DNA of 56,552 nt from Rhizaria sp. SCN 62-66 (GCA_001724265.1 MEDY01000174.1:1-56552); one strand, 5' to 3'; positions 12,626-51,379 are shown, counted from the first letter of the stretch. Notes: generated by a model not told the origin, from the sequence alone. A program made the numbers and translations.

Positions 12626-13123
12626 GAGAGTGAAGAAACTGCAAGAAGGCCAACACTAGTGCGGTGGTAAAGTCTTACAATGTCTGAAACTGGTCGGCTG
12701 AGGCGGTGGGGAGCAAGGAGACACGGCGAACGGGAGTAGGGAGACGTTAATGAACGGACAGGACTTTGGGCCACAGAAACGATTGCACCTAAGGGGTTAG
12801 GCTACATCAAGCGCGTATTTTGATTAAAATATTAGAATTAGACAGTAGTTTAAACCAAAAGCACAATCTAGCAGACAAATTGGCGGCTTATTGGGTGCGC
12901 ACGGGCTGTGCTCTTGAACGAGTAACTGCCCACATTTCAGACTCGGTTTCGGTCGCCACTGTCTCGAAGGGACTGTAACACACACTGAAGAGCAGCCAAA
13001 TGCACCGCGTTCATAAGCAAGATGTTTGTATTATTAAACAAAACTGAGATATGATTAAATAAAAGGCTAACTGTAACTTATGGCGTTATATTGACTTTAA
13101 GGGTCGCGTATATATGCAGTTAT

Positions 13124-13817
13124 TTAGATGCGCCTGGCGAGGTCCTCGAGCCGCGGCACCTCGCCAGCGCGCGCAGGCGGCCACGCGATCGCCACTACAC
13201 GACTCTCAACCATCGCGATGGGAACGGGGCCAAACTGGCGCGAGTCGTGCGACTGCGCCGGGTTGTCGCCTGCCAGCCAGACGTGACCCGCAGGCACGCG
13301 CACGGTCTCGCGCAGGGGGCCCACGACGGAGGTCGAAGGCTGCTGGAGGGTGTCGCCGGCCTGCGAAGCGCGATATATCGACAAAAAGTAAAAAAATCAA
13401 CAGGATATAGAAAATATACATCGTGAGGTATTATGGAGCAATACGATATAGCGCGTCAGTGCAAATAAGAGGCGTTGAAAGTGACTGAAGTGAAGTTGAT
13501 GAGAGGAATGCGACGGAAACTAGCGCATAGAGAGCGAAAGCAAGACGTACGATCGCGACGACTCGCTTGCACATGAGCGTGTCGAGCGTGTCCGGGTTCT
13601 TCGCGATAACAATATCGCCGAGTTTGATGTCCCGCGCGCCCGGCACGACGCACAGCACACGGTCGCCGGGCTCGAACGTCGGCAGCATGCTCGGCCCACG
13701 CAGGCGCGTCAAGTGGCAGACGTTGTCGGCGATGAAGATGGCGCTCAGGTAGCCCACGGCGGCGGTGCCGACCACACCGCGCGCCACGCGGGCCAGGCTC
13801 GACAGCAGGCTGGACAT
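13124..13817 (-). CDS. IMMP1L: Mitochondrial inner membrane peptidase subunit 1 (peptidase S26)
   Basis: Exons 13817-13551 and 13360-13124 (intron GTACGT...GCAG, phase 0). Catalytic Ser in GPSMLPT, Lys in CKRV, then VPAGHVWLAGDN..SHDSRQFGPVP. No C-terminal TM helix, which favours IMP1 over IMP2. Ends TAA. Confidence 0.85.
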
Positions 13818-14292
13818 TGCGGTGGGACGAGAGGGCAGGACGCTGGGAAGCGCGGGCGTCACAGCAGGACGGGGATTGGTGGTGTCGAGGCGAAAGGGAT
13901 CGCTGTAGAGTAGGAAGGAGAGCACTAGAGGGAGAGCGGCAAATAAAAGATGTAGTTTATGAGTAATCGTTCAAAAAGTCGAGTTATTAGTACTTAAGTC
14001 TCATTATGTGTGGAAGGTAGCCTTGCTCATCACCGTGGCCACGACGGCAGAAAATGACGACTCGCTCCAAGTTCTGGTGAATCCAACTTGAAAATAGATA
14101 GAACTCGCAATTCTGACCGTAACATTTGACTGTGGTCATAAAGTACATACTATCATTTTATTTTATACAGTTCACCTTAATTATATTTTGCCAATTGTTG
14201 TTTAGGTCTCGCACAGACATCTTTTCGATTCTCCCACGCCCTCTCAAGTTGGACCCCTTGCTTCTCCGCCCGTCGTCCCGCTCGTGCCCGCC

Positions 14293-17200
14293 ATGAGCGC
14301 GCCCGGCCGCGGCCCGGAGCAGCCCCCCACGGTGCCCCGCGCGCCGTCGCCGTCCCCAGCGGTCTCCAACTCCCTCCGCCCCGCGCATCCCTCTCAGCAT
14401 ACCTCCGAGCCCCCCACGTCATTAACCGTTGTCACTCGCACCTCGTCCGCTTCCACAGCCGATGTTGCCCGTAATAGCCCCGAGACAGGTACAGCTCACA
14501 GAGCCGCCCATAAAGCCCCACGTCAGCCGTCCCGGCGGCGCCGCCGCGCGCCCCGCGGCTCGTCCTCGTCACACAACGCTTTCGCCGCCTCATCCTCTGC
14601 ATCAACATCGTCACCGTCGTCATCATTGGCCGTATCAGGCTCTGCAGCGGCGGTGCCCGCGTTGCTGTAGCTGCCGACGGAGCTATTCTGGGAGATCTGT
14701 CTCTTCAGCGACGTGCGCTCGCTTCTCATGTTGTCATCATGTTCTCTCGTGCTGCACCGCGTGTTCAACGAAGCGTTCTGGCAGCAGTACTTCATGCTGC
14801 GCTGGGGCCGCCTGCACCACGTCGACAGCGCAACCAAAGTCTCGCCGCTGCTGCCGCGCATTTGCTCAGCGCTGTGTCTCTCCGGTGACTTCCTTGTCAA
14901 CTTTATCGAGTTTGGTTTCAACGTACGTGCCCGACTCAACGGCAAATCGCAATTCGCTATTTTTGCGACTGTGTTATACAAGTATTGGATATGAACATGA
15001 TTATGATTCCAGGATCAAAAAAATAATGATATTCAGGAGTACTATGTAGATTTTTATCTGGTACTCAATTTTGTTCTGTCTTGCAATGATTTTATATCCC
15101 ACAACATCGCATCATCTCTCTTGCTTTGTTGCTTTGCTTGATGTACATATCACAGGCGCCTCGCGTGGCCCGTGCGCCCGGTGTCGACCTCGGCACAGGC
15201 TACCTGGCCGCGTTTTTCGGCTTTGCCGAGCCCTGGGCCCGTTTCGCGCCCGCGCTCTCTCTCGCACCGTCGCTCACACCGTCTATCTCGCTGTCGCTGG
15301 CGCAGTCGATGGCCCGCGCGTCGGCTCCCTCGGCACGCGCGCTGCGGGCCGCCGCTGCCCTCCTCGACAGCACCGACGACGACGACAACAAGAACGACGG
15401 CAACAGTATTAACGGCGGTGACGGCTACAACGCGGACGACGTCGCCGCTTACGGTCACGGTCACAGACGCGACCGCAGTCGCAGGGACAGCGGCGGCGTC
15501 TACGGCTACGGCGGCGACGGCGCTGTCGCTGCTGCGGAGGACGCGTGCGGAGGCGCGACGTGGCGTCTGCGCAGTGCGCTGAGCTCGTGCGCGGTCGCCT
15601 TTTCGCGCGTCGCCAGCCCGCTTGCCATCGCGGTGCGCCGGCAAAAGCAGTCGCAGAAGCAGAAGCAGAAACAGCGGCTGTATAGCGGCGACGGTGACGG
15701 GGATATGGACTCTAGCGTCAACGCCAACATCACTGGCAATGACAGCGGTGCTGAGAGCGACACCGAGAGCGAGAGTTACAGTGACAGCGCTATGACCGAG
15801 ACCGAGACCGAGACTGAGAGTGAGACTGAGACCGGGAGCGAGAGCGAAAACAGACCCACTGTTACTGCTGAGACAGAGCATGCGCCCGAGCTTTCTGCGG
15901 CGACTGAGACTGCGGGCGCGTCTGCGTCGACCCGGAGCGCGCTGGAGCAGCGGCAACAGCGCCGCCGCCGCCGTTTGGCGCGCGATTTATCTACTGCTGC
16001 TGCTGCTGCTGCGGCGGCGGCCGCATCCGACTCTGCGACTATGAGCCCGATCGCTAATTCTAGCGCGAGCTCGAGCGCCAGCGCCAGCGCCAGCATTAGC
16101 GTTAGCGTTAGCGTCAACGCGAACGCGTTGTCGCGCGCGGGCAGTGGTTCGGAGGCCGGCGATACGAGCGACTACGACGACGACGACAACGACGGCCTGT
16201 CCGCGGCGCCGGAGCACTCGCACGGCAGTGACCGCGGGGGCGCTGGTGGCGGCGGTGCGGGGGGCAACGGCACGAGTGGCAGTGGCAGCGCCCGCCGCGC
16301 CCGCCGCCGCCGCGCGAAACGCCGTGCTGGCTTCCCCGCTGCCTCCGAAGCCTCTGACGGCGCTGCAGCAGAGGAGCGCTCTCAGCAGCAACAGCAGCAG
16401 CAGCCATGGGGGGACCGGGCGCGCGCGCGGTGGGCGAGGTGGGGCGCGCCCTCGACTGACCGGCTGCCGCGGCTGCGGCGCCGCGCGGACCTGCAGGTAC
16501 GATGCAATCTATAGTACCTTCGTACTGTACAAGATTATATATCGAGTATATCTTGATCAAAGTGTTGATTTGGAAAGAACCGCTCGATATTCTTCAGAAT
16601 CAAGGTATATTCTGCAACGATTATTGTTTAAGTTGCTTAAGTCAATATTATCAGCAACGGCGTTCTCATGATATCCGACTCATTTCTTTGCTTCTTTAGG
16701 ATCACCCACTGTTGCTGCCGTGGTCAGACGCGCCGCCCGCAGCCGCGTCCCCCTCTCCAAGGACACCAACTGCGACTCCAGCCGCGCTTACCGTGCCCCG
16801 CGCTGGTGTTGAAGCGAGCACAAGCCTCGTCGCACGCGCTGGCGCAGCGCTAGCGTCGCTGTCGTCGCTCTTCGCGTCTCAAAGGGCCAGCAGAAATGAC
16901 CGTGGCGACAATAACAACGCTAGCTCACTGGCTGTTGCCGCCACCGATGGCAGTAACGCACCAGCTGCAGGCCCCGCTGTGTCTGGGACCAATGTCACGC
17001 ATGCCTCACACACGGCGACCTCGGTCCGCGACCTCGGCGTCTCTGCCTCAACCTCCGCCTCCGCCTCCGCCTCCGCATACGCGACTGCGCACGACGTCAC
17101 CGACGCTGGCGCCGAGAGCTACGCCGGCGCAGACTCGGGCTGGGGCAGCTACAGTTACGACGCAGATCTGTACGACGACGATGCCGCGGTTGATTTCTAC

Positions 17201-20200
17201 GGCTCCGGCCCCGACTCCGGCGCTGGCACTGGTGCGAACGCGGGCGTGGGTGCGTTAGAGCTGCGGGACGAAGGCGTGCTCGACCGGCTCCTCCGCATTC
17301 GCAGCGCTGCTATCGCGGCGCACTCAAGCGCGGACGCCGCGGCAGTGCCGTCTCTGCTGACGCCTGCGGGCGACGAGTACGACATCGCGTCTGCGCACTA
17401 CGTCCCGCCCCCACCGTCGCAGACCCAGCGTTCGCATGCTCAGGCGTCGCGCGCACAGTCAGAGGCCGGACTCAGCGACGGCGGCTCCGCGCTCGGCGGC
17501 GGCGGCTCTGACGCAGGGCCAATGTCCTCTGCAGTGGGGCAAGAGGTGGAATCCGACTCGGACGCCGACGCCCGCGCCCGCGCCCGCGGTCACGGTCACG
17601 GTCTCAGTTTCGGTCCTGGTCACGGCCAGGTCTACGGTTACGGCCGCGGTGCCGCTGGCCCCGGCAGCGGCCTTCTGTTTCCGCGCCCGCCGCGTCCTGC
17701 AGGCAGCGGCAACGGCGGTCACAGCGGCATCGGCGACCGGTCACTGCTGCGTTCGCAGTCGCGGACGCAGTCGCGGACGCACTCACGGTCGGGCTCGCAC
17801 TCGCGCGCGCACTCGCGCTCGCGCGATAACTCGCCGCCTCCGCTCGGCCTCGGTCTGCCAGCCGCAGCCGCCGCTGCCGCAGCCGCCGCTGCCGCTGCCG
17901 GCACTGGCGCTGGCACCGGCGCAGGCGCTGGACTCGGGAGTGTGCATGGCTCAGACGCGGAGCCGGGAGTGATGTCTCGCTCGCGCGCCGGCTCCGGCTC
18001 GAGTTTTTCCTCACACAGCCACAGCTACAGTCAGAGCTACGGCGGCAGCAGCGGCGGTGGCGGCGGCGCGGTCGCTGCGGTCTATTTCCCGTCCGCTGCC
18101 GGCACTGCCGCACCGCTGCCGCTTGTCGGCGCTGTTGTCGCGGCGCCACACAGCTCCGCAACCGCCGCTCTTGCAGCCGCCGCAGCGACGAGTCGTCTGC
18201 GCACGCAAGCGCAGGCGCAAGCACAAGCGCAGGCACAGGCAAGGACACAGGCACATACACAGATGCAGACGCAGTCGAGCGCGGCGACGCAGGAAAGCTC
18301 TGTTCTGTCACAGGCGCAGCCGCTGACGCTGTCGCTGTCCGGCGATGCTTCCGCTCCCGGCAGCCCTCTGGCCGCGCTGCCTGACGTCGCCAGTCCGGTG
18401 CCGATGCTCCCACCCGCGCGAGGCCCGCCGTCCGCCGCCGCAGCCTCTGTTTTAGCATCCGCTTCCGCACTTGCAGTGGCTCCGTCGGCCGCGGGCTTTG
18501 TGGACGGAGCCGGCGCTGCGGAGGCGGCGCCCCCGCCGCTGCTGCGGCCGCAGTCTCTGTACCTCGACGCCGAGAGCGAGGCATGGGCGCTAGCGCTTGT
18601 GCGGTCGATTACTCACCCCACTCTCCCCTCTGTGACTGCAGCGCTGAGTTCCGCCCCAGTCAAACACGCTGCGCTCGCCGGCGATGTGACCGCAGTGAGC
18701 CAGCAGCGGGCTGTGGCGCATAACGCAGTCGCCCCGCGGTCACCGGGCGGAGCACGGTCTCAGACTGGGTCGCAGACCGGCGACGCGCCGCTGCGGCGGT
18801 CACAAGTTACGCCCGCGCCTCGGTTTCCCACTGCTGGCATCGCTGCCGCCGCCGTCGCCACTCCACCAGTCTTCCTTAACGCTAGTCTCGAGCTGCCGGC
18901 CGCGCAGAGCATGCCCACCAACGGTCACCACTCCACTGATCTTAGCGTTACGTCTGGTAGAGGCGCTGTAGGGGCTCTGCGGCGAACCAACACTACCGGC
19001 GCCGGCGGCCGCGCGCTTAGCGGCATCGGCGACCACGTCACTGGAGCTGACGACCTTGAGCTCGACGAGGATGAAGAAGACGGCGCTGCGCCGTTGCGTC
19101 CGCTGTCGCGCGCGTTCGGTTACAATGGCAACAGTGATAGCAGCGACAGTGACAGCGACGTGGTCGGCGCCGGCAGCGGCGGCGCCAGCGGCAGCCTCAG
19201 CGGCAGCTTCAGCGGCAGCATCGAGGACAGCCTCTCAGGCGGCCTGCGCCCGCGCCACCAGAGACGCGACGTCGCCGCCGCGCCCACGCGCCGCTCCCCC
19301 GCGACGTCGTCGTCCGTCTCCACTGTCTCTGCGCACATCGCGCACAGAGCGCACGCGGCACACGCGGCAACAGCAGCAGCGCATGGCGCCGGTGCGGCGC
19401 TTTTGGCGCCATCTGGCGGCGCGCTTGTTGTGTCTGCCAGTGTACACTCGCCTATGCACGCACACGCGCACGCGCATCAGAACGCGCGCGCGCTCTCTCG
19501 CACGCACACACGCACGCCGTCGCACTCGCAACACACGTCCACTGCGTCTGTGGCTTCCTCAGCGCGCGTGCCCGGGCACGTGCCCGGACACTTGCAGTCG
19601 CCGCCCGCGCGGCCGACGCCGGGCCCCGCGCCCGTGCCGCTGCGCGCGCCGCCGTCGTTGCCAGCTGCGCCCGGCTCAGTCTCAGCGTCGGTGTTCGAGG
19701 TCGTCTCCGCGCGCCTGTCCGCGGCGGCCTCCGACGCAGCGCGCGCGGCCGCCGCGGCGGTCGCCACTGCGATCTGGGGCACTCTGCCTGCAACCGACAG
19801 CGTGACCTCTGCGGTGAACACAGCGGCGGCGGCTAACTTGGCTCCAGGTGCTGATTGCTGTGTTGACAGCGAAGACCGTGAAACCGCCGCTCCCAGCATC
19901 ACAATCACCGCGGCCGCTGGCGACACAAACGCTGCCGCTCTGGCCGCGCCCGCTGCTTTACACGCGGGCTTACCGGCGCTATGTCCAGACGTCACACTGG
20001 CGGCGGACTCGGGACCGGCGCTGGTAGAGAGATTGCTGCAGCTGGATTCACGGCCGCACTCGCGCTCACAGTCGCAGTGCTCTGCGGCAGCGCCCTCAGG
20101 TCCCATAACTCCGCTCGCAACTGCTGCTTCCCCGCTTGCAGTGACTCGAGCGACATCACCCGCACGCGCGACCTCGCATGCGTTCGCGTATTCTCCCGCT

Positions 20201-22447
20201 CCAGACTCGCCCCCAACGGCCGCAAAACACACTGCAGCAACCGCGGCACTTAGGGAGATGGGCTTGGAGGACGCGCTGGCGGCCGTGCACGCCCGCGCAC
20301 GCGCGCGTGCGCCGGCGCTGCGTCGCGAGCAGTGGGCTGTTGCCCACTTGCACGCGCGCGACCCGCGCTTACCCGGAGGAAGCGGACACCGCAGTACCGA
20401 CGCAGCAGAGCATAGGGACTTGGGTAAAACCCACGGCAGCAAAAGCAGTCGCGGTCGGAGCAGTGGAGGCTTGCTATGGGGTTCTTCGAACAAGGCGCGG
20501 CGCGGCGGCGATGGGTGCAGCAGCGGCAGCGGCAATAGCGATTGTGAAAGCGACGGCGACGTGCTCGATCTTTCACAGCTCCCAGCTGGTGGGCCTGGCG
20601 CGGGCACCGGCGGCGGCGTTGGCGACCTGTGGAAGCACGCGTGCTGGGTACAAGAGAGCACGCGCGGTGACCCCGGCGAGGCCGTCGAGCTGCGCCAGTG
20701 CTCGATCTGCAACCAGCTAGACGTGTACGACGTCGACATGCGCCGCCGCGAAGCCCTGCTCGCAGCCGCCGAACACTCGTCCGCGACGTGGATCCGGCCC
20801 TGCGCGTGCGCCACGTACGCGCACCGCGCGTGCCTTGAGACGGAGCTGTTGCAGCGCGGCGCGCGCGCGCTGCATTGCCGCGAGTGCGGCTCTGCGTATC
20901 GCACCGCGCAGCGCATGCCGCTGACGCCCGCTGAGCTGCTGCGCGCGACATGGGCCGACCGCGCGCACGTCGCGCGCATGCTGCTGGTGTGGAACGTCCC
21001 GTTCTACTTGTTCTGTATGCTGCTCGTCGTCCTAGTCGAGAATGCGCACGTGCTGATGCGGTGCGCCGATGACACCTTGCGCGCACACTCGCCATTCGAG
21101 CCGCTGGAGCCACCATACCGCGCGCACATTGCGTACGCTGGGCGCCCCGCGGCCACGGCAGCTATTGCAGCGGCCGCGGCCGCCGCGGTTTCCTCCGCCG
21201 CTGCGCCCGCTGTTTCAGCCGCGCTTAACGCGACCGTCAGCGCAAGTGCGGGCGCCGGCGGCGTGGCCGCCTGGGCCGCGGCAGCGGGGCGCACTGCGTT
21301 GCGCTACCTGGCAGCCGACGTTGCCTTTGTTGCGCGCGTGTGCGGCGCGGCGCCGGAGACACAGCGCTGGCTGCTTGATATGTTTGCGCCTGTCCATGTT
21401 AATACCGCTCCGGACCCCGTTGTTACTGCAGCAAGCATGACATCAGCAACACCATTGAGAGAGTACGACGCCCCTGCTGCGGCGAAGGCCCGCGCTGCTG
21501 CAGTCAATGCGGCGGAGGCAAAGCGTTGGCGTCGCGTTGCCGTGGCGGAAATGGATTTGTCTCTGTGGCGCTCGCCGCTACAATCGATTGCGCCTGCCAC
21601 AGCCACTGCCGCTTGGGCCGGCGAAACAGGGCTAGCACAACTTGACCTGACAGCACACGCGCTCTACCATCGCAATTACATCGAAATCTGCTACCGCCCT
21701 GAGCAGATTGCAACGGACGTCAACGCGACCTCATCAGTGAGCAGCGCCACGGTGACTGCAACTGTGCCTGCGAGCGCGCACAGCGATGCTGCGACGATTA
21801 CGGCCAGCTAGCCCGCACCTAGGCACGGCGACGACGATGACGACGACGATGACGACGCGGAGGAGCCCGTGCTGCCCGGCACGTCGGCGTTCCCCGGGTA
21901 CTGGATGGGCACATTCCGCCCTTCTGCGACCAGTGGCGCATGCGCCTGGGAGAACGTCATGGCGCCGTCGTGGGCCGTTGCGGTGGCGTTCCTGCTTCAG
22001 CACCAGCTCGTGTTCATCTACTACTCGCCGCGCCTGCAGGCCGCCGTGCTCCGTGTGTGGTCTTCGCCGTTCGTCATGAGCTTCATCAAGCTCTTCCTCT
22101 TCTTCGTCACGACGGTGACATTCATCCAGGCGGCGTTTATCCGCGTCGAACTCCTCCACGCGCTCGCTGTGCGGCTGCCGCACTTGCTTGCGCTGCCGAT
22201 GTTTGCCGCCGCCCGCTTCGTAGGCGCTGTGCAAACGGCCATCGCGCGCTCGGTGCTGCTGTCGACGCTGGCGTGGACAGCGTGGGCTGTGTACTTAGCA
22301 GCAGCGAGTGTGCTTGTGTACATCTACTGGCGCACACATTACCGCATTGATACGCTGCAGAACAACACTTACCAGCCGCGCTCCACAATCCTGCCGTCAT
22401 TTGGCTGTCTCATGTGTTCCATGGGTATGTGTCTTGATAATCACTAA
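14293..22447 (+). CDS. F-box + RING-CH (RINGv/MARCH-type) + multi-pass TM protein; contains two in-frame TAG codons
   Basis: Exons 14293-14922, 15156-16496, 16700-22447 (phase-0 introns GTACGT..CAG and GTACGA..TAG). F-box-like ALL*LPTELFWEICLFSDVRSLLMLSSCSLVLHRVFNEAFWQQYFMLRW. C4HC3 RING-CH CSIC...WIRPCACATYAHRACL...CREC at about 20699-20890, followed by hydrophobic helices. About 2573 codons, ends TAA. Requires reading through TAG at 14668 and 21809. Confidence 0.7.
14668..14670 (+). other. In-frame TAG within the F-box motif (candidate recoded codon)
   Basis: GCG TTG CTG TAG CTG CCG ACG GAG CTA = A-L-L-*-L-P-T-E-L. Confidence 0.75.
21809..21811 (+). other. Second in-frame TAG (candidate recoded codon)
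   Basis: ACG GCC AGC TAG CCC GCA CCT AGG CAC GGC GAC... ORFs 16712..21811 and 21869..22447 are in the same frame with no other stop between them. Confidence 0.7.
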
Positions 22448-22869
22448 ACACCACGATTGTGTCTCAATCATTTGAAAGTAAGGCGACGCCTGTGTGACGA
22501 ATATTTGTGTGACAAGATTTGTTTGCGACAGACGTGGCATTTTTATAGCAATTTCTTGTATTTTAATCATCACAGAGACTTGTACGACTCGAGTAAAACC
22601 AGAAGTTGTACTTGTGCAATGATGATAAGTTGGTAGTTTTAATTAAAGGCTCACCGTTACATAGGCTTGTGCGACAAGTAAAAACAAATGTTGGATATGT
22701 CTACTAATAAATTACTTGTATTTTGTCAAACAAATAAGCTCACAAATGAATGTTTAATTCATTGTACAAAGCGATCATCTGATGATCGTTTCACTGGCCC
22801 TCGAGTAACATCAAGTCTCACATTACACACGCTAGTGGCCATATCAAACATGCAATAATCGCACACGCT

Positions 22870-31932: not shown

Positions 31933-32745
31933 CAGGGATGGTGATGATGATGTGTCTGTGTGCGTGTCGGCAAGATGGCCACGCTTTATTAATCTGTGCG
32001 TCTTTTTCCACTTTTATTATTCTGCAACGCTGTGCTACTCTATTGTGCTGGTGACATTACAATCCTACTGCTGTCGTCATACCTAGCGGTTTTACCAATA
32101 CATTTGTGCGATATGTGGATCTTTGTAAAGATTAAACAGGTTAATATAGTTGTATTATCATTCAATATTACACTAATACATTCTAGTTATCGTTTCTTTG
32201 TTGTTTTTCACGCAAGACTCTTGTGCTCTTGCTATTTGGTTGTTGTGGATAAATTTTCCGCCACTCACAGAGTCACATTGTCTCCGCTAGGGGCACACAC
32301 GCTAGTTATATTGTCAGCCCGAGCCTGCACACGCAAACGCACATACAGAAACAAGCACACTGTCGCAGACACAAAAGTCCTCAGTAGTCACTGGAAGTGC
32401 TCATAGGGTATGTGCGTGGACATTCGTTATTATTTGTGCACGTGTTTACACCGCTTTGGCGCTTGTGTGATGTTGGTGCTCGTTTATACCGGCGCAGCAC
32501 ATGTATATAGACACAGCTACAGTCGCTGTAGCAGCAGCAGTAGCAGCAGTCGGACACACAAGGTCGACGGCGGCTTCACTCTACACCGTGTCGACATCCG
32601 AATTAGTTTGCGCACCACGTCATTTTTCGTTTGTTCACACACTCCTTTCCCCCACTTTCGCATCATTGCACTTCATCTATTCACTCACACACACGTACAC
32701 TGCGTCGTCCGTGGAGTTTGACACCGACTGCGACAGACGTCGAGC

Positions 32746-37084: not shown

Positions 37085-40000
37085 TTACTTCTTCTTGCGA
37101 TCAGGGAGCTTGCGCGAAAGCGTGCTGCCATGCGCGGGCTGCGCACTGCGGGTAGCGAGCATCTCCAGGCCCTGAACAAAGAGCGATGGCGGCAGCAGCA
37201 GCAGCTCCAGGCGCTGCGCCTGCGAGGACGAGAGGAGTGGCAGCCCGGTAGCCGTCTCGCGCTTCAACACCAGTGCGTCGGTGCTCGCGTAGTCGAGCGA
37301 GCCGTCCGCGCCCAGCTGGACGCGCGGCATCGGCACCAGCGGCGTCAGGCGCGCCGCCTCAGCCGCGGAACTAGCCACCGCCGGCGTCGGGTGCATCGAG
37401 CGCAAGTTCCTGTCATACTGCGCGAGCGCGGCGTCGAGACTGGCGTCGCGCGCCTGCGCCGCGGGCGTCGGGCCCGTACTGAGGAGCACGTCGAACAGGC
37501 TGCCAAGCTTGAGACCAAAGGCCTGCACCATCGCCAGCGGCATCTGCTTCTGCACGTTGTCGCGCTGAAGTGCCTTGCCATTCGCGCTCACCGACACGGC
37601 CGCCGCGTGCAGCAGGCCCTGCATCGACGCGCGCATCGCGCACACGCGCGCGAACGTCGACTGCGCAGACGGTTGCTTCCGCAAAGCAGCCGTCGCCTCG
37701 GAGCTCGGCTCGACGCGAAGCTTGGAGAAGACGGGCAGCAGGGGCATGGAGCCCGTGACGGCGGGCACGGCCGAGAGCCAGGGCGAGAGGCGGATCAGCG
37801 GCTGCGTGTTGCTCGTGCGCCTGCGCACGGTGCGCGCGCTGGCGTTGGCGGAGCCGAAGGTGTGGAGCGAGACCGGATCTGCGGCGGCGGCCGTGGCGGC
37901 GGTGACTTCAGCACGCAGGGCAGTGAAGACGTTATCGATGTAGGCCGGCTGCAAGATCTTCGTCAGCATCGGCTCCCAGCGCGCGCGGTCGCGGGTCCGC
38001 AGCTCGGGGAGGATGATTCCGTTGATAAAGGCAGAGGAAGGCAGGTGGCGGTGGTAGTCGTACGCGAGAGCGCGTGTTGTCATCCCCTTAAGTGCAGACA
38101 GCGTTACAGGTGCGTGCGCCAACACACTTGCCACGGTGGACTGCGTCGCGCGCACGATAGGCCGAGACGGCAGCGCGAGGTTCTGCATCAGCAGACGGAT
38201 CGACATCGCCGTGCCCAGCGAGCCCAGCGGCACTGCCGGGCCGCCGATCGTGGCCGCAAGCGCGTCGCGCGCGTTATGCATGGGGTCGAGGCTCGCGAGC
38301 GTGCGCGCAAAGGACGGCGCGTCGCTGCGCACCGTGACAAGTCCCAAGAGCAGGCGCGACCAGTGCACTTCGGGCGCGCGCGCGCGCTGCGTCATGAACG
38401 TCGCTGAAGGGTTCTCTGGCAAGCCTAGTGCGTACGTCGCCTGGGGCGGAGGCAGTGCAGCACCTTGATCGTCACTGTAATACTCCTGGCGCTGCAAACC
38501 GCGCGTCGTGGCGCCCACGCCGCTCCCGCGGACCAGGGGTCCGAGAAGCATCGCCGTGAGCATCGGCGCCACGCGCACGCTGTCCGTCTCGGGCGCCACC
38601 GCGCTCTGACGCGGCGGCGCGGCGAACTGCAGCGAGTCGAGCCGCTGACGCAGCGCGCCACCCAGAGACAGTGGGACACCTGCCGCAGCACTCGCGCTCG
38701 GCGCCACAAGCGGCAGCACCATGGAGTCCGGCGTCGACAGCAGCGAGAGCGAGTTGTTGCCGGCTCTCGCAGGAGCGGCCGTCGCAGAGGCTGACGTCTG
38801 CTCTTCAGCGGCCTCAGCAGCCTCGATGAGCTCGGTGAGCGCGGCGCGGTGCCGCAGCCACGAGCGCACGAGCGCCGCAGCGGCGGGCGGAACGGCGATG
38901 CGCTGCTCAACGGGCGTATCAGGAGCGCCGGTGGTGGCACCCACACTGCCCTTGGGGGCGTACTCCGCGGGCACGTCGACGGCCGCGCGCAGACGCTTCA
39001 GGCGGCGCAGGCGGCGCATCATGGCGCGCGCAGCGGGGCCCTCGGGCGCTGCGGCTGACAGCGAGGCCTCCAGCTCGGACAGCAGCGCGTGGTGCAGCGC
39101 AACGCGCACACCTCCGCTGTTGGCAGCAGGGTTCTTCGCGCGCTGGCGTGCGCGTGCAGCGTCGTCATCGAGGATGGAGAACTTTTTGAGCATGGTGGCC
39201 AACCCGTCGTCCTGTTGCGCCGCGCGGTCACGCACGATGAATGTGGTGGCAGAGTCCAGGGTCTCGGTGAGGTCGAACAGACCGCTCGCGGCGCCCAGCA
39301 CGGACGCGGGCGGCGGCGTCAGCGCACGCCACTGCGGCGACAGCGCCAGCCACCGGCACGCCTCGAGCAGCAACATGATCGAGCGCCCCTGCCGCGCAGA
39401 AGGCGACAAACTCGAGACTTGGACGATACTGCGCACAGTTTCGGCGACGGTGGCCATGACGGAGTGGTCCGCGTGCGTGCGTGCCTGCGACTTGATCATC
39501 GACTGCAGCCAGTCGCTCACACGCGCGCCGCGCTGCTGCGCGTTCGCACTGGCACTGTGGGCGGAGGTGGAAAGCGCCGACTGCGTCGTCGACAGCGCAG
39601 CCGCAGCCGCCACGGCGGTCCACACCAGCGCGGGCGTGTCTTCCAGTGGCAGAACGGGCATCGTGAGCCATTCTTCCGCCGCAGCGCCGGGAGCAGCGCG
39701 TGCGACGTGCATTTCGCGCGGCGGCGGCGGCGGCACCATCGGCATCACCACGAGCTCGGGTGCGCCGCCCTTGATGGCGATACCCAACTCGCCCCTTAAA
39801 AGCGCGTCGTGTTCCTGTCCAACAGCCGTGCTACCAGCCGCCGAGACAGCGGCGACAGCGTCGAGGTCCTCGCACCATGCAGCGCCAAGCGCGCGCACTG
39901 CAACTGCGACTTCATCCGACGGCAGCACGTGCGCCAGTGCGGCGGTCAGACAGGGGTAGTCGGCCGGGTCCGCGCGCGCGCCGCCGTCAAGAGCGGCCGC

Positions 40001-43000
40001 GGCGGGCAGAGAGGTGTCGAGCCCCCACAGTGCGACCGCGGCGCGCGCCTCGGTAAGCGTGGCGGCGGTGGGTTCGATTGAGAGCAAAACCGACGCCGCG
40101 GGCAGCGCCGCGGCCGACGACGCAGAGAGCGCGCGAAGCGTGGCCGCGAGCGCGAGGTCGCGGCGCGCGGCCCACGCCTCCTCGTCGAGGTCGCCCAGGA
40201 CGCCTTCATTGTCGCGGCGCGGGGACACCACGGTGTAGCCGACGGCGTCGACGACGGCGCCGTGGTGCGCGGCCTCGCTGCGCAAGTGCGCGGTGGCGAT
40301 CGTGGTGGCATCGGTCAAGATCGTGCTCGACAGGTCAACGGGGCCCAGGAGTGCGTATGAGAGCGCGGAGATGGGCGCCGCGCCGGTCAGCGTGCGGCTG
40401 GATACCGTGCCGTCGGTCTCGCCGCTGTCGTCCGCCACAACGAGAGAGCCAGCGCCCGAGGCCTTGTCGCGCTCGGAGATGGGCGACATCTGCGGAAGAG
40501 TCGTCCGCTTCAGCCTATTGTCGCGCGCCATGGGGCCAACCGTGATGTCCGACACGCGCGGTGTGGTGACGTGCAGCGACTCCGAGAAAGACACCAGCGA
40601 CGAGTCCCACCGCGGCATCGGTCGCTGCCAGCTCTGCAGCGTCGGCACGGCGCGGCGGCCGGCAGCGGTGGCGCGGGAGCGGGCGGCCTCCTTGACCGAG
40701 GCGGCCTCCATGGCCATCACGGCGTCGGCCGACAGAATCGCGGCAGCGTCGCGGCGGCGGCGCGCCTGCACACGTAGCGCCGTGACGGCGGCGTCGACCG
40801 ACGTGGGCGCTAGCGACAGCGCCGGCACGGCCGGCACGACGAAGTTGCCGCCGCGCAGCGTCATGCGCACCGTCACAGCGCCGCTCGTCTGCAGCGCGTG
40901 CACGAGATTGGGGTCCTGGCCGCACGCCAGCAGCGTCTCGTCCTCGTCCCAAGTCCAGTTGGAGAAGCGGTACCGCGAGCCGGGAACGCGCAGCGCGTCT
41001 TGGAGCGCGAGCGCAGGCGACATCGCGAGCTCGTTCGCAGACGCGCGCTGCGCCAGCTTGAGCATATCGTGTGAGCGAGCTTCGTCTTCGTCCGCTGCGG
41101 CCAGCAGATAGCGCGCGAGCGCAACGCGCTGCAGCGACGCCATCCACGTGTGCGGCGGGGCCACCCCGGCAAGCATGATCGTCGGCTCGGCGTACCACAC
41201 GCCGGCCTGGCGCGCCCGGTGGCGGTGCGCCTCGCTTGACGAGTCGAGCTGCTCAGTGACAGCCATCGCCGCCGACACGCACAAGCGGTTCTCCCAGGGC
41301 ATCATCGCGGCGGCCAGATATTGGTCGTGCGAAACCAGCATCACGGGCGGCGCGCGCAGGTTCATGGGCTTCAGCAGGTCCTGCACCGCCGTCTCGGAGG
41401 GCGCGGCCGACATGATCTGCTCAGTGGGCACGCGGCTGTGAGTGCTCACCGTGGGCGGCTGCGGCGGGAACGAGGCCGCCACGACGGGAAAGCGCAGCTG
41501 CGCGAGCGCGTGCGCGGGCACTGGTGCGGGCGGCGCCGGCACCGCTTCCTTGCCGACGCGAACGGCCAGCGCAGTGGGCAGCGTGCCCGCGGAGACGAGC
41601 ATCGCCTGCACCAGGTCGCGGCGATTGATGTTCGCGTTGGCTGGACTAGAGGTCGTCGTCTGCGTCACAGTGAGCGGAATGGCGGCCGCGGAGTCCTCAA
41701 TCGCGTAGATGCTCGACATCACCGCGCCCCAGTCGTCGTCGAGCTCGGCCTCCGTCGCGCCAGCCTTGGTCCAGTCGTTGCTGTTGATGTTATTCTTCTT
41801 GCTCTCAGTCGCGGCGGATAACGCGGCGGCGGAGCGCTTCTGCTCAGTCTCGGCCGAAATATCAGCGGCGTAGCGCTTGTTGTGCGCGAGCTGGATGCGC
41901 GACGTGGCGCTGGCGATGGCGACGGAAAGCGCGCCGTGCGACAGCGACTGCGACGTCGCGCTCGAGGACAGCACCACCGACGGGTCAAACAGCGGTGCCA
42001 CGTGCGAAGAGCCCTGGCCAGTCTCGAGCATCGCGCCAGAGAGCAGCGAGCCCACGCCGTGGGCGCCCGCCGCGCGCACCGCAGCCGTGCCCGACACCAC
42101 GATGCCCATGGGCCCCACGCCCAGCGGTGTCGGCTGCAGCAGCTCGCCGATGTCGATCTCGTCTCCGTCATACACCGCGTCGGAGTCGCCGACACGCGAG
42201 TTTTCCGTGCCGCCATCCAACAACATGCCGGGCGCGGAGCCCGCGGTGTAGAGTTCGACGACGGTATCGCCACGCGCAGTGCTATCGTCGCCGTGGAGGC
42301 CGCGCCTCTTGCGGTCGCGGTCGCGGTCGCCGCTGTTGGTGTAGTTGCGGATGGCGGTGCGCAGCGTGACCGAGTACATGACACCGCCGTGCGACATTTC
42401 CAGACCAGGCGGCATCAGCGGCTCCAGCGCGGGGATACTGCGCAGTGACGAAAACATCTTGCGACGCATCATGACCACGGACCGCAACACACTGAAGTTA
42501 AGTCCCCAGGAACGCACGAATTGGTCGCGCGCACGGTTATCCCGCAACGCCAGGTAGTCGTGGACGAGATTGACGAGGGCTACGTGCTCCGAGCCCGAGT
42601 TCTGGGCATACAGCGCCAAGATGCGCGACATGCGCTGGCGGTCCGAGCCGCCACCCGGCGACGAGAGCGTGGACACGACGATCCCGGCGATGGTGGGGAC
42701 GAGCTGGTGCACGGCCACCGACGTCAGCGCCGGGTCGAGACAGCCCATGAGCAAGCCCGTGAGCAGTGCGCGCCCGTGCACGGCCTCAAGCGGCAGCGCA
42801 GCGAGCAGACGGCCCAGCGGGGTGAGGCGCTCCAGTCCGTCGAGCGCGGCGACCTGGCGCAGTGATGACACAGCCGCGGACACCACAGCCTCCGGCGGCG
42901 GGTCCAGCGCGCGAGCGAAGAAGTGCGACAGCTCACCGCGCAGGTCCCAGCGCCCACCGCCGTTGTGCAGCTCCACGTCGGCGTGCGCGGCGTCGTCCAA

Positions 43001-46000
43001 CCCGTCCTCATCCTCGTCGCGGTTCTCGGGCGCAGGCGCATGGTCGCCGTCGGCGTCGGGGTCTTCGTCGTGGAAGCCCGTCTGCTCGCGGCCGCCGTAG
43101 CGCGCGCTCGAGGCCGCGGCGGCCGCGGCGGCGACGTGCTTATTGCGGCGTGCGCGCAGCAGCGCGGGCGGCGGCGCCGACATGGCCTTGGCCGTGAGCA
43201 GCAATGCGTCGATGTTAGACGAGTGCAGCTCGGGGGGCCGCGACGCCGGCATCGAGGCGTAGAGCGCGCCGGTGAAGAGGCGGAAGCAGTAGCCGGGCTG
43301 CACGCGGCCCGCGCGGCCCGTACGCTGCAGCATGTTGGAGCGCGCGGTGAAGTCGGGCGAAAACGTCGTCATGTTCGACTCAGGGTGGTAGATCTTGTCA
43401 CGCGAAAGACCCAAATCGATGACATAGACGACGTCCTCGATCGTGATCGATGTCTCGGCTACGTTGGTCGACACGATGATCTTCCACTGCCCGTTCTCGG
43501 CGTCGGCGGGCGGGAACACGGCCTGCTGCGCCGCGCGCGACAGCATCGCGTGCAGCGGCAGCACGTTGAACCGCGTCTTGTCGCCGAACACGGGGTGCGC
43601 GCGCAGAGCTTCGACGATGAACGAGATGTACTCCCACGACGGCGCAAAGACCAGCACGGCGCCGTGCGGCAGCGACTGCTGCACGAAGCGCCGCACGTCC
43701 GCAGACGCCGGCGGCAGCCCTTCGGCGGCGATCTGCGCGCGCGCCTCTGCCACGGACTGCGGCAAGCCATTGCTACCGTTGTTGTTATTGCTGTTCTGCG
43801 TCTTCGCCAGCGCGTTCGGGTCGCCGCGCCCGCTCTTGGCGTCGCCACGGCCGCCCTTGCTCTTGGAAGCGTCGACCCGCGCCGACGCCGCCTCGGCCTC
43901 CTGCGCCGCGCGGCCGTACGACAACAGCATATCCGCGCGCGCGGCGCGGGCCGCGGCGTGCGCCTGCGCGGCGTGGCGATTGGCGCAGATGCGCTCGGCG
44001 GCGACGCGCGCGCGCAGCAGCTCGGTGCGCGAGAGAGCGAGCGGGTGCGCCGTGAGCAGCGCGGCCGACACGGCGGCCTCGCCGTCGACGGCCGCCGGGT
44101 GCGGCAGGACGGGCTGGCGCGGCAGCGGGCCGCGCAACGCGGCGGCGTAGGCGGCCGACAGCGGGAGCACGGCCTGCGAAAGCGCCTCGCGCTGCTCGGG
44201 CGACAGAGACGGCAGACCGCGGCCCAGCGCGGGCGCGGGGATGCCCGCCGGCAGCAGCTGCGCGGCCAGCGAGGGCGCCAGCGACGCCAGCGACTCCCAC
44301 TGCGCCATCTCGGGCATCACGTCGTCCATCGACTTGCTGTGCGGGGACGCGCCTTCCTCGGCGTCAGTGCGCGTGATAAAGCGCAGCAGACGCAGGATCA
44401 GCGGCAGCGCGGTTTCCTTCGCAGCCCTGACGTCGACGAGCTCGGCCGCGGCCGCGGAGAAGGGGTCGCACGCCTTGGTGTCACCGCGTGCGCGCGCCAT
44501 GGCGGCTGCGTAGTCGGCCTCGATGGCCGCGATGGCCGCCGCGAGCGACGCCGGCGTCGGCACTTCGTGCAACAGCGCAGCGGGGTCCTCCATCCCGCGC
44601 GACGGCAGTAGCGGCAGCAGCCCGGGCTCGCTCTCCGCGCGCGCGGCGCCGCTGCCGCTCGTGGTGCTCGGCGCGCCGCTCTCATGGTCGCTGCCGCCGA
44701 CGTTCGCTTGTACCGCGGCAGCGGCGCCGTCGGCCGCTTCGAGCTCGCTGCTGGACGAGTCCTCGTCAGCGTCGTCGCCGTCGTCCGACGCGCGCGTGCG
44801 TGAGTAGGCCATCGCGGCCACGGCGGCTTCCAGGCCGGCGTCGTCTTCGGACGCAGACGCGGCGCCGTCGTCACCGGCGTCGTCCAGGTCGTCACTCTTG
44901 CGCTTCGCAGCGTCGCCCGCCAGCGCGCTTGCGGCCGAGTCGTTACTCTCGGCCGCGTCGCCCGCCAGCGCGGCCTCGGTGTCGCTGGCGCCGGACGCGC
45001 CGCTGTTGGCAGCGGACTGCGGGGGCGCGACGGCATCCAGGTCCTTGTGGCCCGCGGAAAAGCGCGCGGCGCGCTGCACCAGAAGCGGCGGCAGCAGTCG
45101 GACCGAGTTTGTCCCGGCGGACAACGCGGCGGACGCGATGGCGGGCTCGGTGGTGCCCTCGAGCTCGAACGCGGGCGCAACCCAGGGCTGGTTAGCAAGA
45201 TCGATGTACGCGTCGATGCGCGCAAGCGCAGCCTGGGCGATTGCCAAGTCGCGGCGGCCCTGCACAACGGCGGCCTGCGTGATGGGCGCGTCGCCGTAGC
45301 CGACGAGCTCGGCCGTCTCGTGCAAGTGGCGCACCGAGACCGGGAACGTGCGGCCCTCGACCTCAATCACGGGCGCCACGAAACACGGCGTGTCGACGCC
45401 GTCGATTGGCACCATGAGCGCGCCAGAGCGCGTCACGTGCGCGGGCGGGGCAAGTGCGTCGACGGCGTGCAGCGCGGCTTCTGCGGCTTCGACGTCGCCC
45501 ACAGCGATGCGTGCGGCGGCCTCAGCCTCGGCGGCCTCGCGCGCAAAGTGCACGCGCCCGGCGTGCATGATGGCCTGCGTCGCCGCGGCCGTCACCTTGG
45601 GCTCGTTGAAGTAGGCCGCGTACTGCTCGGCGCTGATGGTTGCGGACATGAGCACGATCTTGAGGTCAGGCCGCAGGGCGTGCACGTTGCGCAGCAGCAA
45701 CAGCAGCAGGTCGAGATCCTTGCCGCGCTCGTGCACTTCGTCGATGACGAGGTGCGAGATGCCCGCCAGCGCCTTGGCCACGCGCTTGACCAGCGGTGAC
45801 GACGGCGCAGACCAGTACGCTTCGTCCTCGGGCCGCAGTACAGATTGTTCGGCCACTTCAGCGAGCGTCATCGTGACCGAGCTGCCCGCGCCCGCGTGGT
45901 CCGCAGCCACGGCCAGCGCAGCCAGATCGTCCAGCAGCAAATCAGCACTCCCCATCGTCGTGGCCGCAGCGTCTTCGCCGTCAGCGGAAACACTGTTGGA

Positions 46001-49000
46001 GTTGGCAGAGCCGGACACGCTCGCGGCGGCCGCGCGCGCAGCCGAGGCAGCGGCGAACTTTGCCGCTTGGGCGCTGCTGTCCTGAGTCTTCAACCTCTGC
46101 TGGCCGGCGCCGGCGCTGTTGGCGAGCATGCGGTTCACGATGCCGAGCGTGCAAAAGGTAAGTCGCGTGTCAGCCGCGACGGTGCGCTCATTGCGGACGA
46201 TGTAGCCGACCTCAGCGTGCGTCTGCTTGCGCCCACGCGCGTCGTCGCGGCTCGCATCGCCCGTCTTACGCACCCCGAGCGCCTTGGCGGCCGCGAGCGC
46301 CGTCGCAGACATTCGTGACGCCGGCACCGCGGGTGCGGGCTGCACCAGGGCCCACCCGCCGCCGTCGCCGCCGCCGTCGGCGTCGTCGCCATCTGCGGCG
46401 TCGTCGCCAAACAGCGGCGCGCCGCGCTCCTCCGCGACGCGGCCCGCGAGCGCGACCGTGGCCAGCCGGCGCGGCTCCGTCACCAGCACGCGCACGTCGC
46501 GCCCCGCCGCCATGGCGTGGTCCAGGATGAACTGCGGGAACTGCGTCGACTTGCCCGACCCCGTGGCGCCGGCGACGATGACGACGGGGAACCGCTCCAG
46601 TGCGTCGATGAATGCGTCGCGCGCGGCCATCGCGGGCAGCGCCGTGGGGCGGAACGGGTGCGCGGGCGCGGCTGGGTACGCGGGGCCAGTGTACCGGGAC
46701 CCGTGGAGCACGCGGCCCGGCTCAGGGCGGCCAGACGCAGAGGGCGGCAGCAGCGGCTTCTGATGCAACTGCAGCACCTGCGACGCCGCCAAGGCCGCCT
46801 CGCTGATCGACTGTGCGCAGCTGCCGCCGTCATCGTCACCGCCGCCCTGCGCGGTCTTCTGCGCCGCCGCCGCCGCCAGCAGCACGTCGTGCGGAAACGG
46901 CGGCACCAGCGGGGACGTCTGAGCCGCCTCCGCCTCCGCAGCAGCCGCAGCGGCGGTCGCGGCGGCGGTGTGGTGAGCGGGCGCGAGGGCGAGCGCGGCG
47001 AGCGCGAGGGGCGCGGGCACAAGCGGCAGCAGGCGCGCGTCGTCGTCAAGAACGTCCGGCAGCGCTGCCGTGAGCCGCGCGTGCAGCCGCGCGGGCACTT
47101 GGCCGTCATGGCGACCCGCAGCAGCGCTCGCGCCCGCGCTCGCGTCGTCCGCTGCCCCGTCAGCATCAGCAACAGCAGCAGCGTCGTCGCCGCTGCTGAT
47201 CTCTGCGTCGGGCTTGTCATCGGCCAACGACACGGCGTCGCCGCCGACGATGCCGACGACCTCAGCCTCTGGCACCGCGCTGCCCGACGCGGCGGCGACC
47301 ACTGCGGCGGCCTCGTGCGCCTGCGCCCACCCCGCAGCGACGACGTCGACGGCGCCCAGCCAGCGGCGACGGGCAGCGGCCGTGAAGATGGCGTTGGCGT
47401 TGCGCGCGCCGGGACTCAGCCCCGTGGTCTCTGCGACCATGAGCGAGAAGGCAGCGTAGTCGGCGTGCGAGTACGCCGTCCACGCGCCCGCCGCCGAGGC
47501 CGCGAGCGTGTCGCGCGCGAACGACGCGGCGACGGCGGCGCGCACGGCGGCCGCCGTCGCGGCGGCCTCCTGCAGCACGGGCGCCGCCAGCGCCGTGAGT
47601 GAGTGCGCGTGGACCGACGTGAAGCGGTCGATCAGACGCGCCTGCGCAGGGGAGAGAGCCATGGGCACCATGCCGCCCATCGAGCTGGCCGCAACGGACG
47701 CGCTCAGCTCGGCCACGCGCAAGTCCGCCGCACCGGGGCCCGCGGGCTCATCGTCCATCGCGGTCATCACCATCGTGGGCACCGAAGCCACGGTCGTCGC
47801 CGAGGGCGCCGCAAAGGTCGCCGCCGAGACCGCAGAGGAGACGTCGGCGTCGACGCCGCCGTCGGCGAGGGCGTCAACCATCTCGGCGACCGAGTCCGTG
47901 TCGGCCGCGGCCTCGGACACCGCCGCGGCCGCCTGCGCCGCGTCGGCCACAGCCCGCGGCAGCGCGGGCTCCACGATGACTGAGTACACCAGCGCCACGT
48001 CGGCCGCCACGGACACGGTCTCGGGCGACTGTGCGGATGTCAGACAGCCCGTGCGCAGACACACGCGCAGCTGCGGCGCCTGGCGCTGGCGCTGGCGCTG
48101 GCGCGGGGTACGCCCCGCCTCCGTGCTAGCGTCCTTACCGCCAACCTCAACCTCAACCTCAACCTTAGCATCTGCGTCCGCGTCGGCGTCCGTGTCGGCG
48201 TCGGCGTCAGCGTCGACGTCGGCCTCGAGCAGGCGCTGCAGTGACGACGTGTACGCGGCGGCGGCCTCCGCGGGCGCGGCCCCCGCTGCAACAGCGCGCA
48301 ACGTGTGCGCCAGCCGTGCGCGGCGCGCGGCGCGGGCGGCCATCTCGAGCCCTTCCGCGGGCGCAATGACGCGGACAGAGTAGCCCATGCCGCGCGCGAC
48401 GGCGGCGACGGCGGCGGCCGCGGGCGCGGGCAGCGCCGAGAGCAGCAGCGGCGGCGGCACGGGTACCAGCAGCACGTGCGACGCGCCCGCCGTCTCGGTG
48501 CGGTCACGGCGGAACATGGCCACCGCGTAGGCCGTGAGCGGGGCCACGAACGGCAGCGTCTCCGTCGACAGCGCGAGCGCGAAGGCGTCCCACGTGGACA
48601 GCGGTAGCGACACCGCCGCGGCCGCGCCGCCATGCCCCGCCCCCGCGCCCGCAGTTGCCGCCCCAGCCCCAGAGCCAGCGCCAGCGCCGGAGCCGGGACC
48701 CCCGAGGAGAGTGGGCACTTCGCTGGCGGCGCGCGAGTCCGCGGGCAGCAGCGGGCGCGACTGGCGTGACTTGCCGCCGCCGTCGCTCGTGCTGCGGCGG
48801 GGACTGAGCCTGTCGAGCGCGTCGGCGCCCGTGAGGCAAAGCTTGCTGGCGCGCGGCAGGGCCCACCAGCGCGACACGGCGCCGACCGTGGCGGCCGCGG
48901 GCGGCTGCGGCGCAATGAGCGCGCGCAAGCGCGCCGCAGGCGCGGGCTGCGGCGAGAGCGGGTGCCCCGCGGCGGCGAGCGCCGCGGCAAAACTGGCCCC

Positions 49001-50749: not shown

Positions 50750-51379
50750 GGCGGGCGAGCGGGGAGAAAGCTTGTTCAGAAAACAAGCGGGGTGTTAAGG
50801 CTTTGCGATATCAAAGTTATCTAGGGCTGACGCAATCGAAAAAGAGAGATGATCGGACTAAGACTACCGAGAGGCGTACCGTGGAAGGGAGAACAAGAGT
50901 ATGTGAGTGCAGCACGTCGTCTGATGCAATTCTATTTCAATAAGATGTAGAATTTGCGTTCGAGTATCAATAGAAACAAGTTCTTCCTCTATACACCGAA
51001 CGATGATATCGCGGCTTCATATGCAAGTTGGCATCTTTTCCTCGGCCAGTCCAGCCGCCCAAATGTGCCGCGATCGGCAGACTGGCCTCTTAAAATGAAG
51101 CTAGACTACATCAGGGATTCCGACGATAGTGCCATGACCGATATTACTGCTTTTATTTGTCGTTTTTATTATTTTCCGTTTTTTAGCATTAGCTGCGATG
51201 TATGTTCTGCTGTTAGATCACTCGGGAAGCGATCCCACCCACAAGATTCTGTGCGAAGCAGAGCACGGCATCCGCCCCTGTCATCCTAAGATAAACACGT
51301 GATAGAGTTATTTTACGTTTACATGACACCCCGCGCCGTTTTTAAACTCCAATGTTTCTTTACTCTTCCCGGTAGGCGT

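Follow-up and report, generated by a model that had tools for sequence, protein, structure and literature searches.

Nuclear codes in which UAG alone has acquired a meaning are known from the rhizarian exLh, where UAG is read as leucine, and from Iotanema spirale, where it is read as glutamine; as reported in PMC5304391, UAA and UGA remain stops in both, and in-frame UAG codons number 384 in 71 genes of exLh and 204 in 126 genes of Iotanema. No rhizarian code variant besides exLh was found in our literature search. Here we analyze a stretch of 56,552 nt assigned to Rhizaria sp. SCN 62-66 (GCA_001724265.1, MEDY01000174.1:1-56552; hereafter the window, to which all coordinates refer), and within it a three-exon gene on the plus strand, at 14293-22447, which encodes a putative protein with F-box-like and RING-CH-like blocks and whose reading frame is interrupted by two TAG codons, TAG1 at 14668 and TAG2 at 21809. 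A first-pass annotation, made from the sequence alone, had proposed a variant code in which UAG is a rare sense codon. The locus resembles exLh and Iotanema in that the frame is interrupted by TAG only, that genes end in TAA or TGA and that the organism is probably rhizarian. It differs in that their in-frame UAG codons occur, according to the same account, in most of the genes examined and often at conserved leucine or glutamine positions (PMC5304391), whereas here one gene of 13 is affected, and at variable positions. We lean, with confidence only somewhat better than even, towards both TAGs being real nonsense codons under the standard code, in a recently disabled and weakly constrained gene.

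Results

Joining the three exons gives a coding sequence of 7719 nt (2572 codons) in which every exon junction is of phase 0 and the only in-frame stops are TAG1 (codon 126, 14668-14670), TAG2 (codon 2361, 21809-21811) and the terminal TAA (22445-22447); neither a frameshift nor an in-frame TAA or TGA occurs anywhere in this reference frame, and the base directly 3' of both TAGs is C. The spliced model of the first-pass annotation, in which both TAGs have to be read through, was reproduced on each of these points, including the absence of other lesions and the TAG-C context of both sites.

Both TAGs are present in other public assemblies. Part of the stretch was found in eleven rows from seven studies of bioreactor, wastewater, activated-sludge and fuel-cell metagenomes, and contigs from four of the 14 listed runs were aligned to the locus. 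TAG1 is covered by X3 record 1 and X4 record 9, with 0 differences each, and TAG2 is bridged, again with 0 differences, by X5 record 22 (a 167-nt deletion described below aside), while X3 record 6 reaches TAG2, ends 11 nt past it and was not counted as bridging. TAG2 is also found in a separate metagenome contig, L001, which is identical to the window across its 4077 nt. Since independent public contigs carry the TAGs, assembly error is excluded as their source, and the sequencing error listed among the alternatives of the first-pass annotation is refuted by their recurrence in contigs of X3, X4 and X5 and in L001. The contigs of X3 and X4 both break at 21821-21866, a GAC/GAT repeat which corresponds to a run of aspartates just after TAG2 and which is read through in X5 and L001.

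The first TAG lies one residue ahead of the 'LP' that opens the F-box-like block (LPTELFWEI...FIEFGF, 14671-14922), which occupies the end of exon 1 (14293-14922) after the ATG at 14293 and an open, low-complexity N-terminus. By BLASTP this block matches the homologue encoded in a metagenome locus, L002 (E 5e-24, 43% identity over 88 aa), in an alignment of exon 1 that begins two residues before TAG1, with no homology further upstream. Exon 1 ends at the donor GTACGT of intron 1 (14923-15155, GTACGT..CACAG) and is followed by exon 2 (15156-16496), which consists of 447 codons of low-complexity coding sequence, and by intron 2 (16497-16699, GTACGA..TTTAG); both introns are AT-rich and of phase 0. 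Exon 3 (16700-22447, 1915 codons plus TAA) encodes, in order, a long region rich in Ala, Ser and Gly, the RING-CH-like block, a membrane helix, a linker containing TAG2 and a C-terminal membrane domain. The low-complexity, Ala/Ser/Gly-rich sequence between the F-box-like and RING-CH-like blocks extends over about 1300 codons (16700-20630), against about 540 residues in L002, and P0125, a homologous protein, has about 100 residues ahead of its RING-CH block.

The RING-CH-like zinc-finger block (20699-20887) follows the pattern CxxC...CxC...HxxC...CxxC and is kept in the proteins P0125, P0127, P0128 and P0129 as well as in L002. Upstream of TAG2, a short linker block (LWRSPLQSI...AWAGETG, 21563-21631) is conserved with P0125 (BLASTP E 3e-4, 12 of 23 residues identical) and is collinear with the rest of the alignment. 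TAG2 itself stands in a variable part of the linker, ahead of the multi-helix C-terminal domain (21899-22444), which is conserved and ends in ...YIYWRTHYR...LPSFGCLMCSMGMCLDNH, the pattern at its end being ...YIYWRTHYR...LPSFGC..CS.GMCLD.H across relatives; P0125 ends at the same residue, and the sequence that follows the terminal TAA is AT-rich.

A full HMMER search of 1.84 billion representatives, with the last 576 residues as query, retrieved 25 proteins at E <= 0.001. In P0125 the RING-CH-like block, the linker and the C-terminal domain stand in one protein (43% identity over 331 aa, E 8e-51). The best-scoring stretch of P0125 places query residues 395-576 on its residues 480-661, and over the C-terminal domain the aligned sequences are 59% identical. 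In an alignment of eight rows, P0127, P0128 and P0129 also display the F-box block upstream, and in L002 a single open reading frame (ORF) of 1248 codons holds the F-box-like, RING-CH-like and C-terminal domains. Judged from sequence comparison, both TAGs interrupt a conserved architecture, because the homologues hold these domains in one uninterrupted protein. At the position of TAG1 the homologues have D (L002), T (P0127), Q (P0128) and Q (P0129), and the part of the linker that contains TAG2 cannot be aligned among them. A metagenome scan with an alignment of three sequences matched only L001, which is the same locus, and the distant relative L002, and scans of genome contigs gave neither relatives of the C-terminal domain nor an exact 49-nt stretch. 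A word-indexed protein search with the C-terminal third returned P0125 only, low-complexity words having filled the candidate list.

A few protist proteins share this combination of F-box-like and RING-CH-like blocks, a membrane helix and the C-terminal domain; it is located at 14671-14922, 20699-21040 and 21899-22444 of the window and at 6801-10547 of L002. The protein resembles MARCH-type RING-CH ligases and F-box proteins in its C4HC3-like pattern followed by membrane helices and in the 'LPxE' of its F-box-like block, and differs from them in that both of its Pfam matches lie under the curated cut-offs. For the F-box-like models tested (PF12937 and PF00646) the window protein scores 14.6 bits against a cut-off of 24.3, the L002 homologue scores 22.3 and P0128 passes both models with 24.7 and 22.5 bits, while for RINGv (PF12906) the window protein (14.9 bits) and P0125 (16.3 bits) both lie under the cut-off of 21.6. 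Eight Cys and His residues are present in C4HC3 order and are conserved in the alignments, with a Cys4-His spacing shorter than that which we take to be usual for RING-CH. No Pfam family was matched by the C-terminal domain, and we know of no described family which joins F-box, RING-CH and this domain.

In each of the eight segments tested the frame of the model had the highest coding score of the six frames, with a maximum for the gene of 0.40 in the C-terminal domain and a value of about 0 for the 125 codons before TAG1. The 150 nt after TAG1 and TAG2 have a GC content of 0.59 and 0.69, respectively, against 0.33-0.53 after the 13 real stops of the window. The statement of the first-pass annotation that both TAGs lie in GC-rich sequence which continues in frame holds. 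Translation of the part upstream of TAG1 is weakly suggested by an open frame of 154 codons, with a coding score near 0 and no homology beyond the two residues just ahead of TAG1.

Two kinds of variation among strains are possible signs of low constraint. Three differences from the window were found in the four runs, and all three change the protein (A267T, H1817P and G2499D), an outcome with a chance of 0.35-0.39 under neutrality and a lower one under purifying selection. In addition, X5 record 22 lacks 167 nt (21122-21288) flanked by a 6-nt direct repeat, GCGCAC, a loss which shifts the frame, leads to a stop 30 codons on and is accompanied by 0 other differences on either side; this deletion may be an allele or an artefact, the X5 library being labelled as cDNA but classed, tentatively, as DNA. 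The undeleted form is found in X3 record 6, X7 record 30 and L001. The pieces listed for X7, a polyA RNA run, cover parts of the gene outside both TAGs and both introns.

The window is GC-rich eukaryotic DNA, in which coding sequence with a GC content of about 0.6-0.77 alternates with introns and spacers of 0.33-0.48, all of those recognized being AT-rich. The introns measure about 200-230 nt, have a GC content of about 0.37-0.42 and open with GTACG or GTATG, as for instance those at 3645, 4072, 4339, 5120, 14923 and 16497 on the plus strand and at 1387 and 1822 on the minus strand, and the contrast in GC with the exons (0.6-0.77) is by itself almost enough to mark the exon borders. A recount of the 13 genes with determinable ends gave seven TAA, six TGA and no TAG, in agreement with the first-pass annotation. 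TAG is the rarest stop trinucleotide of the window, with a share of 12% among the off-frame stops inside ORFs and of 21% in AT-rich segments, and its absence from the 13 ends has a p of about 0.19 with the former share and of about 0.05 with the latter. A search for tRNA genes within the window found none. On the minus strand, at 37085-50794, lies a single uninterrupted ORF of 4569 codons, which in Pfam matches only DEAD and Helicase_C, near its middle.

The best named matches of two conserved genes of the window are to chlorarachniophytes and Plasmodiophora. In a tree of a single gene, MSH6, built from 20 of the 120 listed matches (the top-scoring ones plus named representatives), the window protein groups with P0150 (Shimodaira-Hasegawa-like approximate likelihood ratio test, SH-aLRT, 100) inside a group with Amorphochlora (SH-aLRT 95). 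Judged by this one gene, the organism is probably a cercozoan-like rhizarian, uncultured, of wastewater and bioreactors. Contigs from runs of several studies, with dates from 2015 to 2025, show 0-3 differences from the window over 14200-22600 (8.4 kb), which suggests that the organism is spread widely, and almost as a clone, in engineered water systems. One public run with the locus has a contig of up to about 190 kb, which may or may not belong to it.

Discussion

The predicted product of the gene under study is a membrane-anchored protein of the ubiquitin-ligase kind, in which F-box-like and RING-CH-like blocks are combined with a membrane helix and a conserved C-terminal membrane domain. 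We hypothesize that the gene was intact until recently, that it was then hit by two mutations to TAG, which is the nonsense change most often produced by single-base substitution in this GC-rich sequence, and that it is now disabled, or at best yields truncated products, and is drifting; a full-length protein would presumably not be made. Of the single-base changes which create a stop in this gene, 54-60% yield TAG, and therefore the chance that two nonsense changes both give TAG is about 0.3-0.36. The lesions are limited to this gene, and nowhere else in the window does a TAG link stretches of coding-like sequence in frame. To this are added the possible signs of low constraint given above, namely the three non-synonymous strain differences and the frameshifting deletion in one X5 contig. 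The homologue in the distant relative L002 terminates on a TAG, beyond which the sequence is AT-rich and contains more stops. Its neighbor on the minus strand of L002 (10770-20474), an ORF of 3235 codons or more which is convergent with the homologue and runs off the end of the locus, likewise stops on TAG. As in a unitary pseudogene or disabled ORF, the stops are verified in DNA, relatives have intact homologues, a further disabling deletion appears to segregate and the polymorphism seen is only protein-changing. Unlike such a gene, this one carries two lesions only, both TAG, in 2572 codons, has no fixed frameshift and displays no measurable acceleration of protein change.

Several observations weigh against recent disablement. 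Nonsense changes make up 2.3-2.8% of the point mutations possible in this gene, and, by our own reasoning, drift between two nonsense hits should leave about 40 substitutions and probably a frameshift; the reference has neither a fixed frameshift nor a TAA or TGA among its codons. A relative-rate count was made over the RING-CH and C-terminal blocks, for which L002 served as the outgroup and only columns free of gaps and X were used; 20 changes were unique to the window protein and 21 to P0125. The conserved domains thus evolve no faster than those of P0125, and any loss of function would therefore be very recent. The absence of TAG from all 13 gene ends, at a p of about 0.05-0.19 given its share in the window, stands on the same side. 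Rare codons are 2.3 times denser in this gene, so that a clustering of rare sense codons here would not be odd, and, if X5 is RNA, the 167-nt joint could be a reverse-transcriptase artefact at the 6-nt repeat.

It is unlikely, in our estimate, that UAG is instead decoded throughout the organism, whether as a sense codon of very low usage or because UAG terminates poorly in general. In that case the gene would be intact, TAG would have been purged from gene ends and the locus would represent an early or low-usage form of the UAG-only reassignment of exLh and Iotanema. Organism-wide decoding would account for the absence of TAG from gene ends, for a frame of 2572 codons interrupted twice by TAG and by no other lesion, and for the location of both TAGs at variable positions, the first aligned with D, T, Q and Q before the 'LP' and the second in the unalignable linker. 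Likewise, the domain 3' of the two TAGs is conserved to the same degree as its counterpart in the orthologue P0125. The gene also has a weak codon bias, and rare codons gather in it: their density is 2.3 times that of ten other long ORFs, and AGA occurs nine times here against six times in the 12,116 codons of those ORFs. It is therefore plausible that a sense codon of very low frequency would occur twice here and be missing from the other genes. Furthermore, the organism groups with a chlorarachniophyte (SH-aLRT 95), within a supergroup which, as reported, already has one UAG-sense lineage (PMC5304391), and in Amoebophrya reassigned stops are described as missing from about half of the transcripts (PMC6394959).

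Organism-wide decoding would nevertheless imply two TAGs in about 14,700 codons, far under the described cases. Neither in MSH6, acyl-CoA synthetase and two helicase ORFs nor in six other long ORFs was an in-frame TAG or a TAG extension found; these ten ORFs are stop-free by construction, so that the real test is whether a TAG joins them to further coding sequence, and none does. The caveat of the first-pass annotation, that in-frame TAGs are limited to one gene and absent from the other 12 of 13, is thereby upheld. Two candidates elsewhere were rejected: an open frame joined by a TAG at 32404 is part of an AT-rich 3' spacer and does not resemble coding sequence, and a TAG at 12658 sits just upstream of the ATG of a neighboring gene. 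The absence of TAG ends is only weakly significant (p 0.05-0.19), and skewed stop usage alone proves little, because the rhizarian Guttulinopsis is reported to use UAA almost exclusively with its code unchanged (PMC5304391). Also to be set against UAG decoding are the frameshifting deletion in one population, the strain differences which are non-synonymous in three cases of three, the share of 54-60% of possible nonsense mutations that give TAG anyway, the use of TAG in L002 to end both the homologue and its neighboring gene, and the window without a tRNA gene. Because the positions of both TAGs are variable, homologues do not reveal the encoded residue, in line with the first-pass annotation. 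The window offers no evidence for UAG as a sense codon other than what the first-pass annotation had itself observed, and these 56 kb neither support nor exclude the variant-code reading; that Rhizaria contain a second, independent or early-stage UAG-only reassignment, in which TAG would only just have started to enter weakly constrained genes and have a usage far below any described case, is a conjecture that we hold to be improbable.

Still less likely is an error in part of the gene model, such that TAG1 is untranslated, owing to another start or to an upstream exon spliced to the AG of TAG1, and that TAG2 is the true end of a shortened gene, the C-terminal domain then being made separately or not at all. 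This would agree with the similarity to homologues starting two residues before TAG1, with the score near 0 and lack of detectable homology of the 125 codons upstream, with a possible splice acceptor, TGTAG|CTG, exactly after which the conserved block starts, and with the in-frame ATGs which follow both TAGs. Against it, the recognized introns are AT-rich and have GTA[CT]G donors, whereas the sequence before TAG1 is GC-rich and no such donor is present on the plus strand at 13547-14923, and translation from the next ATG (codon 146) would leave the F-box-like block without its beginning. TAG2 lacks the AT-rich spacer that is found after each of the 13 real gene ends, and the two halves are fused in P0125 and L002. 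Two introns were considered and rejected. The first, over TAG1 (14489-14670, 182 nt, donor GTACAG), is GC-rich, lacks a GTA[CT]G donor and keeps the frame only with a first exon of nine codons from an ATG at 14462. The second, over TAG2 (21463-21822, 360 nt), was the only frame-keeping candidate found there; it contains the linker block at 21563-21631 conserved with P0125 (E 3e-4), which argues against an intron removing TAG2, and its donor, GTACGA, is of a kind common by chance, GTACG being frequent in GC-rich coding sequence. The TAGs are thus probably neither spliced out nor gene ends. The case against splicing is weaker for TAG1 than for TAG2, nothing upstream of TAG1 being conserved and its AG being in principle able to serve as an acceptor.

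Gene-specific recoding, whether by programmed readthrough at two UAG-C sites or by A-to-I editing of UAG to UGG in some life stage, is very improbable: a C after the stop is the leakiest context, both TAGs have it and the frame goes on into a conserved domain, but a CARYYA-type motif is missing at both sites, and the predicted folds of the 100 nt downstream of each are no better than those of shuffles (z 0.77 and 1.39). The stops are not conserved in homologues, L002 and P0125 having sense codons or an unrelated linker there, and the only contig over TAG2 from a cDNA-labelled library, which may be DNA, reads TAG. Editing that corrects stops is known, moreover, from filamentous ascomycetes, and the affinities of this organism are with Rhizaria. 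To explanations of some other kind we leave whatever probability remains.

If the gene is simply disabled, as we favor, the finding is an ordinary one and serves mainly as a caution: in a GC-rich genome, where TAG is the most frequent product of nonsense mutation and also the least frequent stop trinucleotide, two stops of the same type together with few gene ends can look like a change of the code. Should UAG be decoded, the organism would instead represent an early, low-usage stage of stop-codon reassignment, one which is predicted by theory and rarely observed.

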